Shown here piece by piece: positions 7,396 to 48,776 of a stretch of DNA of 62,680 bases. The notes below the pieces were generated by a model, which was not told where the DNA came from, made no database searches, and worked only from the letters and a program-made list of their open reading frames with translations. The translations under genes were made by a program, and so were the position numbers. Source of the DNA: Proteromonas lacertae (lineage: Eukaryota); contig NGBS01000033.1 of the NCBI GenBank assembly GCA_002245135.1, forward strand, positions 1 through 62,680, written 5' to 3'. Numbering within the stretch: position 1 is the first letter of the stretch; every line of letters starts with the position of its first letter.

Positions 7396-10300
7396 ATGCA
7401 ATCAACATCTTCTTTAGGTCATGGAAAAATAGGGGAAATAGTATTAATAGAAAAGGTATATGGTGACAAAACGTTCTATTATTGTGATGAACCTTTTTTT
7501 TTAGTCAGAGATTGCTTCATTCGTATTTATTGTGAGATAAAGAGTGTTATATCCAACCCTACTGCATCTAAATATCAAAAATGTTTTTTAGTGTTTGGTA
7601 ATGATAGAATTGGTAAGACAACATTCAGCTGTTTTTTAGCATATTGTTTGAACATAGATAAACATTTTCAGGAATATAATATACTACGTTACTCTGCAGA
7701 AAAATCAAGTGTGTTTTATTTTTATCGAGAGGCTTATGGTAAAAGATATGAAGAAATAAAAGATCTACCTGATACAAAGAGGAAAACAATAGTAATCAGC
7801 GATAATCATCCCATTAAAGAAGATGACTACAGTAATGCTGAGATAGTGATTATGGTATCTTCCCCAAATGCAGATAAATACAAAGTTATGAGTTATAAAA
7901 GAGCTCCAGTGCAATTCTATTTACTACCTCTTACACCAGAAGAAATTAACTTCTCTAATAGCATAGAACGTGTATTACGTGAAGTAAACAAATCAGATGG
8001 AATAGAATTTGATCCAGATAAAGATGGTTTACCATCATATATACCAGCATCATACAATGAAAATTGTTATATATATGATACTGACAGGATAGATGTTATT
8101 CCTGATAGAATAAAGTTTAGATCGGAGAAAATAAAAAGAAAAATTCTAATAACGCATTTCAATAGCCCTGGTAAGTTCCAATCTTTATATAAAACCTTTC
8201 AGGATGATAAAAGTAATGGAATGATATATGAAAGAATGTGCCACATTATTATTAAAGATAAGTTGCTTTATAATCAAAATCTTCCATATATAAGTGATAA
8301 TATGTGTTATCATGATAATATGAAAGATTTTGTTAAATATCTTAACTCAGATGTAATGTTCCACGGAAAAGACTATATTAAAAAACATCATCTTATAATT
8401 GATACATTATATGTTGATTTTGGTACAATTAAAGACTTTCCAGCTATTGATGGCTGTATAATTAATAAATTCAATATTACATCTGTTCAAATGACTGTTA
8501 AAAATAAACATCCTACAAAAGATAGTGTGATTGTATTTCTGAATGTATTTATATATATTATTATATTTGATTAGATGATATATGATCGTCATAAGAAAGA
8601 GATAATGAAATATATATTAAATGCAACTAATTCATTTCCAGCAGCATTTTCACAAGAGTCTTCACTTTATGAACTTGGTTATATACCAAGTAGTTTAAAG
8701 AAATATATAATATTCAAAATGGATCAACGTAAAAGAATTCTATGTGAAAGTTATGTATATTTTATTATTTTTAATTTGTTTATAGTTTTTAATCAATGAA
8801 ATCAACTGTAGAAAATACATCGACTCTAATTTGATGAATATGTATAGTGCTGATAGACAGACTGAATTTAAGAATGTTATGGATAGTGATATAAATCAGT
8901 TTAATAAATTAAAGAATAAATTATTCACTAATCATAATGGTGTATTGAAATGTATAAAAGAAAATGATCTAAATGGATTAGTAAAATTTTTTAAAGAACA
9001 ATTAAAATCAATCTTACAACAATTAAATGAAGAATATGATAGATATACTACACAATTATTACATATTTCTGAGCCAATTGAAATATATAGACTTAGAATC
9101 AGATTAACCATGTTTAACAATATTGTAGATATAATTGATAGACAATTAGAACAATCAGTAAAATCAATTAATGATGAAAAACTTAACACCTCAATAAATG
9201 ATTTAAAGAATCAGATAGATTGTTTAAAAAAACAAACATTAGATGCAATAACTGCCTTAGATAATCAGTTTAAAAATCAATTGAGAGAACAACATGAATT
9301 GAAACTAATAGAAGAATTACATAACGAAATTGAAATGATAAAAGAGCAACCACAAGAATTGCTTGACAGATTGAATTATTTTCTTGATCAGTTACAACCA
9401 GGTGAATTATTTACAGAATTAGTTTATTTAATTTCATCATTACAAAAGAACTTATCTGATATATCAAACAGAATAAATACATTATACGATGAAATAACAA
9501 AAATTCAAAATGATGCAGAAATGTTAAATGAAATATGTGATGATGTAGAATTATTGAAGATTCATCTCTATATGATAGATAGGCTGTTTCAATCATATTT
9601 ACAGTTTAACTTGGACAATGATCTTGAAACATGTTTATCATATTTCAGACTTTTCCTTAAATATTTTAAAGCAGATATGAACATAGAAGGTAATGATGAT
9701 GACAAGGAAATATCTACTGAAGAATTAAACAATTTGCATAATGAACTTCTTTCATTACAATATCAACTCCAATTGTTAAGTATATACGATCTTGAAGTAG
9801 GAAATGAATTAGTGAAGAATAAAATGAATTCTGAAATAGGAGAATATAGTGAAGATTACAAAAAGTTGTTGCATGATTTAGATGATTATTTAATCGATGA
9901 ATATTACATTAGTTTAGATTTTAAAGAGAGAGAAGATATGAAGAATCAAATTATTGCTGTATATTATTATGTTTTATTATTATTATTATAGTCAATTGCC
10001 AGTAATACAAGCTATGATATTAATGAATTAAACAGATGTAATCCAATATTTACTATTATATTTGTTACATTTCAAAATGAAATAGTTGATGGTAAACCTA
10101 TAGAAAGTGAAGAAGATTTTAGACATTTTGGCAATGAATTACAAAATGAAATGATAAAAGAAATGAATGACATTTATATTTGGGATTTTGTATATCCTTC
10201 TAAAAGGCCAAGAACAAAAATAACAAAACCAGAAAAATATTCTTTAGATAAAAACCAAAAGAGTATAATAAAATCTATAAAATCAAAAAGACTTAGATTT

Positions 10301-47100: not shown

Positions 47101-48776
47101 TTAAATCCAATTTCATTTTCTGTATATCCTTCACTTTTCTCTTTTTTTAATTTTTCTATTTTTACTTGAATAGATTTTGATAAATCTCTCATTCTTTTTA
47201 TTCTATCATTATTATTAATTTCATTTATTTCATATTGTTTTTCAATAATCTTGTATTGATTTACTTCTTTTTCTAATAACATTTTATTAATCTCATTTAA
47301 TTTATCTAATATTATACTTATCAATGTATATCCAACCATTGTCATATCCTTGTATTGATTTTTATTTAATGTATTAAGTCTATCATTTTCATTAATAATG
47401 TAATAACAATATTCATCTAATTCTTCTACATCGATGATAACTTTTTCCAATGAAAGAAATCTACTAAGTCTTCTTGAATGTGATAATAAATCTTTTATTT
47501 CGTACATTTTTTGTTCAATCTTACCATTACAATGTTTTATAACTCTATTATTATCGTTATTCAAACTATTCATAATGTTATCACATTCAGTTTTATTCTC
47601 ATTAATGAATTTATCATATCCAAATGTATCTTCTGTTATACTTTTCAAATCTTCACAAATATTGTTTACTTCTGTAATATCATTTTCATTTATATTCTTT
47701 TTATTGTTTTCTTTTGTTAAATTTTCGATTTCTTCATTCAATTTTCTTATTTTTGGTTCATTTTCTTTATCATATTTTGTTATTATTTCATCCATGACAG
47801 CCATTTCATGAGTATATCCTTGAATCTTTAAGTAATTCTTCTGCTCTTCAGTATATTCTTTACATAAATTTGTTTTTAAAAAGTATAATAATGCATAAAT
47901 GAAGGAAGTCTTACCTATACCTGGTTGTCCTTCTATTGTTATATTCTGCTGAGAATCTTTTGATAATAATAAACAAATATGTCTAAACATTTGTTTATAA
48001 CATTCTCTAATAAGAATTCTCTTTCTGGGGAATTGAAATACATTTACAGATTCATCAAATTCTAACAACTCTTTACCATTATCTGAATTTAATTTTAAAG
48101 AATTTACTATTCTGATGAAAGCATCTTCTTTATTTATATCATGTCCTAATGTATTATCTGTCTCTTCCTCCATTTCTTTTAATGAACTTTCATTTCTTCT
48201 TCTTTTACTTTTCTTTTTAATATCTGTATCATGTTTTCTCTTTTTTGATGTTTTCTCTTTAACAGGAACTGAAAAACTTCTACTACGATTTCTCATTTTT
48301 CTATTACGATGAATTACAGAAAGTTTTATCTTCTTTGACAAATCACTACCTTTATTTTTTCTACCACCATTTATCTCTAATGAACTATCGTTCATTATTT
48401 CTACGCCATGTTTTCTTTTTGCTTGTGGGTAATTATTACCATCATCATCTAATTGCCTATAAATAATAAAATCTTTTCAGCTTACTTTATTTTGGTGTTA
48501 GTAGGAGTAATTTCACTATCACTAGTAAAATTTTCCACTTCCTTTGACTGACCTTTCCTATAAATAATAAATATTTATATATTTACTTCCTCTGCTTGCC
48601 AATACCTTCACTAACACCATCTTCAAGAGGAGGTGAATTAACTTCGTCAAATTTTCTCTTACTCGGATTTAACCTATTCACAATATTATAATCTATATTT
48701 ACGTAGTTTCTGTCTCATTCTGTTGATTTTCTTCAACTTGACGATGATTTTGACCAACTGTTTCACCCTCACCCAT
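44192..48776 (-). CDS. Crinkler/RHS-type protein: NTPase-B + degenerate REase, Pro linker, NTPase-A + REase (~1,490 aa, 5 exons, one frameshift at ~44775)
   Basis: Introns 48674-48702, 48558-48586, 48457-48485 and 46014-46043 keep frame. Module B: GQPGIGKT, ISSPD, YGNIPR, GKDYW. Module A: GNRKIGKT, GHLYE..FPDVDA..IQITVSDKH. Confidence 0.78.

Follow-up and report, generated by a model that had tools for sequence, protein, structure and literature searches.

Can two Crinkler/RHS-type (CR) units work together in one protein chain, and why would the same two units occur in both orders? This question is raised by a stretch of 62,680 nucleotides from Proteromonas lacertae (contig NGBS01000033.1 of assembly GCA_002245135.1; hereafter the window), in which two genes, referred to as gene 1 and gene 2, each combine a module A with a module B. 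As already pointed out in a preliminary description of this DNA, gene 1 reads A..B and gene 2 reads B..A, and the short motifs quoted there for the modules are all visible in the translated open reading frames (ORFs) where they had been located. Our analysis suggests that the two-unit A/B layout is a real and apparently previously unnamed variant of the CR type with a predicted split of tasks. That is, B is predicted to be a working ATPase and A a working cutter, and with a probability of roughly 0.5 the two constitute one complementary ATP-gated DNA nuclease.

Results

Motif patterns suggest reciprocal decay of modules A and B

A profile search of 1.84 billion representatives yielded 29 related proteins, most of them single-exon ORFs on contigs under 5 kb, and searches with single sequences returned one relative of module A of gene 1 (A1) and two of module B of the same gene (B1). 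We compiled the motifs of A, B and single-unit modules in a table of 27 rows. The arginine following the GxP motif (GxP-R) is present in none of the 13 A rows that reach it, in all five B rows and in all six full-length single-unit rows. The P-loop proline occurs in 1/15 A, 5/5 B and 7/7 single-unit rows, and the Walker B aspartate in 11/15 A rows (it is absent in A2 and in module A of the relative P0019) and in 5/5 B rows. A1 possesses the Walker B aspartate, and its GxP-R region is deleted. The REase pattern, which marks the nuclease, can be recognized in nine A rows, as a variant in P0014 and in the downstream frame of gene 2, and in none of the four B rows reaching its position. Both A1 and A2 have an intact Walker A consensus, GxxxxGK[ST], of which the glycine and lysine do not vary across 13 rows; the non-canonical Walker A previously attributed to A was therefore an overstatement. 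What stands of the initially proposed reciprocal decay is the GxP arginine on one side and the nuclease pattern on the other: A is marked not by its Walker A motif but by the missing GxP arginine, to which gene 2 adds the loss of the Walker B aspartate. Read from these residues, the reciprocal decay of A and B is real.

Modules group by type rather than by gene

Comparison of the modules revealed matches between A1 and A2 (E 3e-14) and between B1 and B2 (E 2e-10), as against E 0.025 for the best cross pair of A and B; composition-preserving shuffling gives z-scores of 16.4 and 13.5 for the two like pairs, which bears out the pairing of A with A and B with B suggested at the outset. When all six modules of genes 1 and 2 and P0019 are compared, the like pairs reach z 13.5-35.9 and 0/500 shuffles score as high in 6/6 cases, whereas the nine unlike pairs range from z -0.6 to 4.6. 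A and B are homologous through the NTPase (hhalign 95%), and the modules are ~23-30% identical. In phylogenetic trees, the A clade has a support of 99/97 with single-unit outgroups and of 98/94 on NTPase columns alone. Clades by gene are rejected by the approximately unbiased test (p 0.0037, 0.00046 and 0.0046), that is, modules group by type, as had been expected. Near-duplicate cluster members and nine of the 29 profile matches were omitted from the trees, namely the fragments P0015, P0016, P0017, P0020, P0022, P0027, P0033 and P0034 as well as P0029, a false match of clamp-loader type; P0018, P0025, P0026 and P0032 were additionally left out of the 99/97 tree. The single-unit protein P0021, which has a complete NTPase signature as well as the nuclease motif, branches next to the B units and is a candidate for the undivided ancestral state.

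A and B resemble CR proteins module by module

In the ESM Atlas, A and B each match Crinkler/RHS clusters with scores of 0.96-0.97, the recognition score of B (2103) being below the guide value of 2300 given by the tool. Module A aligns with a profile of eight single-unit proteins over 348 columns, from the NTPase through the nuclease motif (hhalign 99.7%), and the NTPase of B matches single-unit relatives at 99.1%, which upholds the assignment to CR/RHS-type modules. Three of these eight single-unit relatives match PF07999 at E 3e-4 to 5e-3, below the cut-off of this family. Genes 1 and 2 gave no match to the RHS families PF07999 and PF20445 at E up to 0.1 or up to 10, and in Pfam the window proteins matched none of the CR, RHS or header families. 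Likewise, the Crinkler header PF20147 had no match in exon 1 of gene 1 or in gene 2 from residue 79 on; the first 77 residues of gene 2, outside the header scan, look low-complexity on inspection. The 5' end of gene 1, and with it a header, may have been lost beside a truncated polymerase gene. AlphaFold models built from alignments of 3-4 rows have a mean pLDDT of 38 and 37, and Foldseek searches with these low-pLDDT models returned mostly AAA+/STAND proteins in the top rows (best E 0.008); the best Z of a structural match was 4.1. A PDB sequence search gave P-loop matches only and Rfam gave no match. Judged by sequence, A and B are CR-like module by module, but strictly speaking they do not count as CRN effectors.

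Both modules are predicted to share one chain

The protein P0019 is an uninterrupted ORF of 1,041 residues encoding B and then A, in agreement with the earlier proposal of a double-module family. Across the B/A junction this ORF and gene 2 are collinear (30% over 765 columns, E 1e-58), which provides independent support for B and A in one chain and for an old B-A order. No relatives with a longer fused form (950-2,710 residues) were found among 4,079 candidates, which is weak evidence with the range 672-949 skipped, and DNA scans of metagenome contigs or viral contigs revealed no related loci. The continuing diversification by module shuffling that was originally envisaged fits less well: there are two orders only, the identity of the modules is low, and the B-A order recurs in a relative of 30% identity, all of which is better accounted for by a complementary pair that was fused twice long ago.

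In gene 1, the modules are predicted to be joined by splicing. The four introns have lengths of 30, 31, 33 and 34 nt, 9-10% GC and GTA...TAG ends, and all are in phase, yielding 5,772 nt without an internal stop. Introns of host genes in the window (n=4) have the same ends and measure 33-44 nt. A junction of this type arose by chance at 32/5,000 random coding positions and at 78/5,000 positions of the whole window. Each junction is therefore expected in 0.6-1.6% of cases, and four in succession are not due to chance. Upon shuffling, each large exon would carry 34-66 stops. About 35 residues precede the NTPase of A1. The linker is largely helical or coiled by composition, gave weak coil-type matches only in a family scan, and contains an imperfect repeat of ~45 residues near residues 1178-1260 (score 84; 0/100 shuffles). 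Most A1-type ORFs end a few residues beyond the site of the first intron, P0017 continues from module A into sequence resembling exon 2 (0/300 shuffles), and P0002 enters module B at the position of intron 4 from an upstream ORF stretch; these intron positions and the run-on in relatives are read from protein sequences. In frame just past the gene 1 stop, 20 OTU-like codons follow before a repeated element cuts them off. They resemble the beginning of an OTU peptidase, a likeness that Pfam and PDB searches did not confirm.

Gene 2 has four in-phase introns of 29, 29, 29 and 30 nt. At a fifth junction, the sole possible bridge is a GT-AG intron of 19 nt, which we rejected: it is shorter than all eight others and would remove residues conserved in P0023. 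This relative aligns to the upstream gene 2 ORF through residue 407 and to the downstream ORF from residue 1 with one residue lost between, which leaves no room for an intron and points to a frame break near 44790. Thus, the idea that introns of ~30 nt generate two long genes holds for gene 1 and for four introns of gene 2, but not for the last gene 2 junction, and the nuclease of A2 is out of frame as assembled. An axonemal dynein gene on the opposite strand, 320 bases from the start of gene 2, is likewise broken. What remains of it begins around residue 2,930 of ~4,200 in the full chain, has in-frame stops at 50296, 52417 and 52426 and changes frame near 52570; the 5' two-thirds are absent from the window. 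The proximity of this broken gene renders true decay of the block somewhat likelier than an assembly slip, and the gene 2 copy in the window is probably decaying. Residues 149-165 of gene 2 comprise lysine/arginine clusters that resemble a nuclear localization signal.

Genomic setting

The GC content of the window is 19-31% per 2-kb bin. Among its ordinary eukaryotic genes are those for PTPA, a ribosomal L6-family protein, KRI1, WD40 and LRR proteins. Flagellar genes, namely those for CEP104, an ODAD-type coiled coil, Sfi1 and axonemal dynein, identify the host as a flagellated protist. Introns in these ordinary and flagellar genes are short and AT-rich. A gene for more than 1,400 residues with a repetitive body and teneurin-type EGF repeats at its C-terminus probably encodes a surface protein.

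Both genes of interest have mobile DNA in their vicinity (Table 1). The start of gene 1 is 57 bases away from the truncated fragment of a Polinton-type polymerase. Gene 2 has hAT-like debris on one side and the dynein remnant on the other, and together with the latter it forms a block flanked by CENP-B/HTH and hAT-like (DUF659) transposase fragments. Polinton/Maverick-like gene sets are found at both window ends. The right-hand set includes two orphans that are capsid candidates by size only, and at its left edge there is a pair of 148-nt inverted repeats separated by 240 nt, resembling a miniature inverted-repeat transposable element, along with two long hairpins. The Polinton-type polymerase has no relative in viral contigs. 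An element of ~60 bases, present in two copies (79% over 78 nt) with an 18-base core found twice (0/100 shuffles), is located upstream of transposon-like debris in each case and is probably a transposon end. Finally, 4 kb from the 3' end of gene 2 there is a single-exon SUKH/SMI1-KNR4 gene (PF09346, E 1e-16) whose product has an acidic tail. The SUKH/SMI1-KNR4 family includes immunity proteins against nuclease toxins.

Table 1. Coordinates of genes, modules and neighbouring features in the window
Feature	Position	Strand	Remarks
Gene 1	7396-13295	+	five exons, 1,923 codons; A, helical linker, B
Gene 1 exons	7396-8544, 8575-8754, 8786-9958, 9992-11387, 11422-13295	+	
Gene 1 introns	8545-8574, 8755-8785, 9959-9991, 11388-11421	+	
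Module A1	7501-8754	+	P-loop NTPase, helical part, REase-type motif; split by intron 8545-8574
A1 Walker A	7597-7620	+	
A1 REase-type motif	8437-8496	+	
Gene 1 linker	8786-11387	+	~860 residues, exons 3-4
Module B1	11422-13295	+	NTPase and C-terminal part without REase motif; intron 11388-11421 precedes
B1 Walker A	11847-11870	+	Walker B and GxP-R also intact
OTU-like codons	13296-13358	+	
Gene 2	48776-44192	-	N-terminal region, B, A
Gene 2 introns	48674-48702, 48558-48586, 48457-48485, 46014-46043	-	
Gene 2 N-terminus	48150-48776	-	~190 residues, low-complexity, not hydrophobic
Module B2	46044-48150	-	NTPase; C-terminal part without REase motif
B2 Walker A	47930-47907	-	Walker B and GxP-R also intact
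Module A2, NTPase and helical part	44790-45764	-	
A2 Walker A	45599-45576	-	consensus kept; Walker B aspartate and GxP arginine absent
A2 REase-type domain	44192-44788	-	motif near 44572-44558; reading frame different from rest of gene 2
Polinton/Maverick-like gene sets	341-7338; 55466-62639		
Integrase-like ORF	2126-3286		
Truncated protein-primed polymerase	6382-7338		
Capsid-sized orphans	56591-57661; 57713-58690		
Adenain-like protease	61386-61970		
Inverted repeat pair and hairpins	54338-54873; 55248-55357; 55379-55482		
~60-base element	13355-13411; 52993-53049	+	
Gene with teneurin-type EGF repeats	19792-24524	+	
SUKH/SMI1-KNR4 gene	39722-40342	+	
Transposase fragments (CENP-B/HTH, hAT-like)	40946-43564; 53574-54110	+	
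Axonemal dynein heavy chain remnant	49099-52774	+	

Discussion

How might two such units act together? In the mechanism proposed here, the gene for a single-unit NTPase-REase ancestor would have been duplicated. In copy A the nuclease residues would have persisted while the arginine after GxP disappeared, as did the Walker B aspartate in the gene-2 branch; in copy B the complete NTPase signature would have persisted and the nuclease residues disappeared. Through mutual need, the pair would then have become fixed within a single chain on two occasions, once in the arrangement A-linker-B and once as B-A. ATP binding and hydrolysis by B would load or assemble the enzyme on DNA, A would contribute its P-loop domain as a docking partner that binds nucleotide, and the REase domain of A would cut the DNA. 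This would most likely take place in the nucleus of the cell itself, as part of a conflict with mobile DNA. The best 19-residue hydropathy is 1.27, and there is no hydrophobic leader or membrane segment in either protein, which together with the basic clusters of gene 2 makes the own nucleus likelier than export. The mobile-element neighbours fit such a conflict and would also fit with simple residence in unstable regions. Passages in PMC5289972 describe the REase of CR proteins as the presumed toxic part, with the NTPase in a regulatory role; the split of tasks would extend this view and parallel what is described for CifB (PMC11342252).

A bolder version of this mechanism holds that an obligate pair of motor-only and cutter-only units derived from one CR toxin unit was fused twice independently in opposite orders, producing giant ATP-gated nucleases of the nucleus that hold Polinton-like viruses and transposons in check, as a eukaryotic counterpart of bacterial two-part ATPase-nuclease defence. 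In this extended form the proposal is speculative, and we regard it as rather doubtful.

Several observations weigh against a complementary nuclease. A1 retains Walker A and Walker B and may still hydrolyse ATP, and the importance of the GxP arginine for hydrolysis is drawn from AAA+/STAND NTPases generally. The 'decayed nuclease' of B is deduced from position; the C-terminal part of B gave a weak match to the helical domain only (probability 4.8%, E 0.008; 20 shuffles E 0.33 or worse). Rows of the motif table are related, the A1-type ones possibly stemming from few organisms, so that the counts are not independent. In one of the three trees, which had fewer outgroups (P0028 and P0031 were further left out), support for the A clade declines to 90/83, and monophyly of B1 and B2 is weak in two trees (87/48 and 72/41), partly because P0021 sits beside them. 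Two units occur in only one of the 29 profile matches, though single-exon ORFs on contigs under 5 kb make up most of these, and A followed by B in one chain is seen in gene 1 only. The upstream stretch of P0002 has a non-significant likeness to the gene 1 linker (47/300 shuffles), and the long mRNAs of both genes are predicted from the DNA alone.

Alternatively, the two-unit genes may be real and their units independent, being recombination by-products of clustered CR paralogues that each decay or diverge alone. CRN families are described to recombine and to cluster near transposons (excerpt of PMC5289972), and both genes adjoin mobile-element debris. Moreover, the linkers differ tenfold, the insertions of B1 and B2 sit at different places (that of B2 comprises ~270 residues after the P-loop helix), and B1 and B2 may not be sisters. 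Yet, all three two-unit proteins seen pair one A with one B, never A with A or B with B, the losses are complementary across all rows of the motif table, and the B-A order is held at 30% identity. We consider independence of the units to be rather unlikely.

It is still less probable that domestication has given the proteins a housekeeping function in the nucleus, in transcription or mRNA export like RHS proteins of trypanosomes, with the nuclease motif serving RNA or DNA processing. The basic clusters of gene 2 and the apparent conservation of intron positions in relatives would suit such a role, as would the RHS precedent itself: these proteins are reported to be mostly nuclear, present at Pol II sites and essential, ~60% of the copies being pseudogenes (PMC8311971, in excerpt). 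On the other hand, relatives that are 30-40% identical and the many paralogue-like matches of A1 fit fast-evolving conflict genes, and the family scan of window proteins detected no adjacent or fused RNA-processing domain.

Delivery as toxins or effectors against host, competitor or prey cells, as known from oomycete CRNs, appears very unlikely. It could draw on family precedent (passages in PMC5289972 and PMC6131194), on the many CR headers that are described to lack signal peptides (PMC5289972) and on the SUKH immunity-type gene 4 kb from gene 2, but neither a Crinkler or RHS header family match nor a hydrophobic leader was found, and 1,500-1,900 residues far exceed the 460-690 of the Atlas clusters. 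Lastly, a merger on paper of two or more adjacent genes into gene 1 through false introns, a known annotation error in Blastocystis with its ~30-nt introns (PMC12129017, in excerpt) and one in keeping with the lack of a relative that spans introns 2-3 significantly, is highly improbable given four in-phase junctions of host type, gaps under 35 nt that are too small for separate genes and ordinary stops in the host genes of the window.

For a complementary A/B nuclease, the natural separation of ATPase and nuclease in both orders makes their coupling directly testable with single-site knock-out mutants. This bears on the role of the NTPase in CR proteins and on that of CR proteins in non-pathogenic eukaryotes, and convergent fusion, if true, would be strong evidence for CR units acting as hetero-oligomers. 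Our literature searches did not reveal any CR protein with two units; such forms may be listed in Zhang et al. 2016 or its supplement.

Comparison with known systems

CR proteins typically consist of one ATPase followed by one REase (passages in PMC11342252). Genes 1 and 2 share with them the succession of P-loop NTPase, helical part and REase-type motif as well as the association with mobile DNA (PMC5289972, PMC11342252), but have two units per chain, no recognized header, complementary motif loss and both orders. Trypanosome RHS proteins (PF07999/PF20445) have a related NTPase (Atlas 0.92) and likewise form a multigene family with broken copies, whereas the window proteins lack a match to these families and are doubled in layout. 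The Medea1-type element of Tribolium, with CR-NTPase8 and CR-REase7 (PMC11342252, in excerpt), resembles genes 1 and 2 as a selfish or mobile NTPase-REase element in a eukaryotic genome, but is a single unit. A further parallel, by description and not by sequence match, is provided by Wolbachia CifB/CinB, a CR-related protein whose single chain holds REase copies of both kinds, active and inactive, with a presumed role of the latter in DNA binding (passages in PMC11342252). CifB has four REase domains, lacks an NTPase and requires CifA, whereas genes 1 and 2 pair whole NTPase-REase units.

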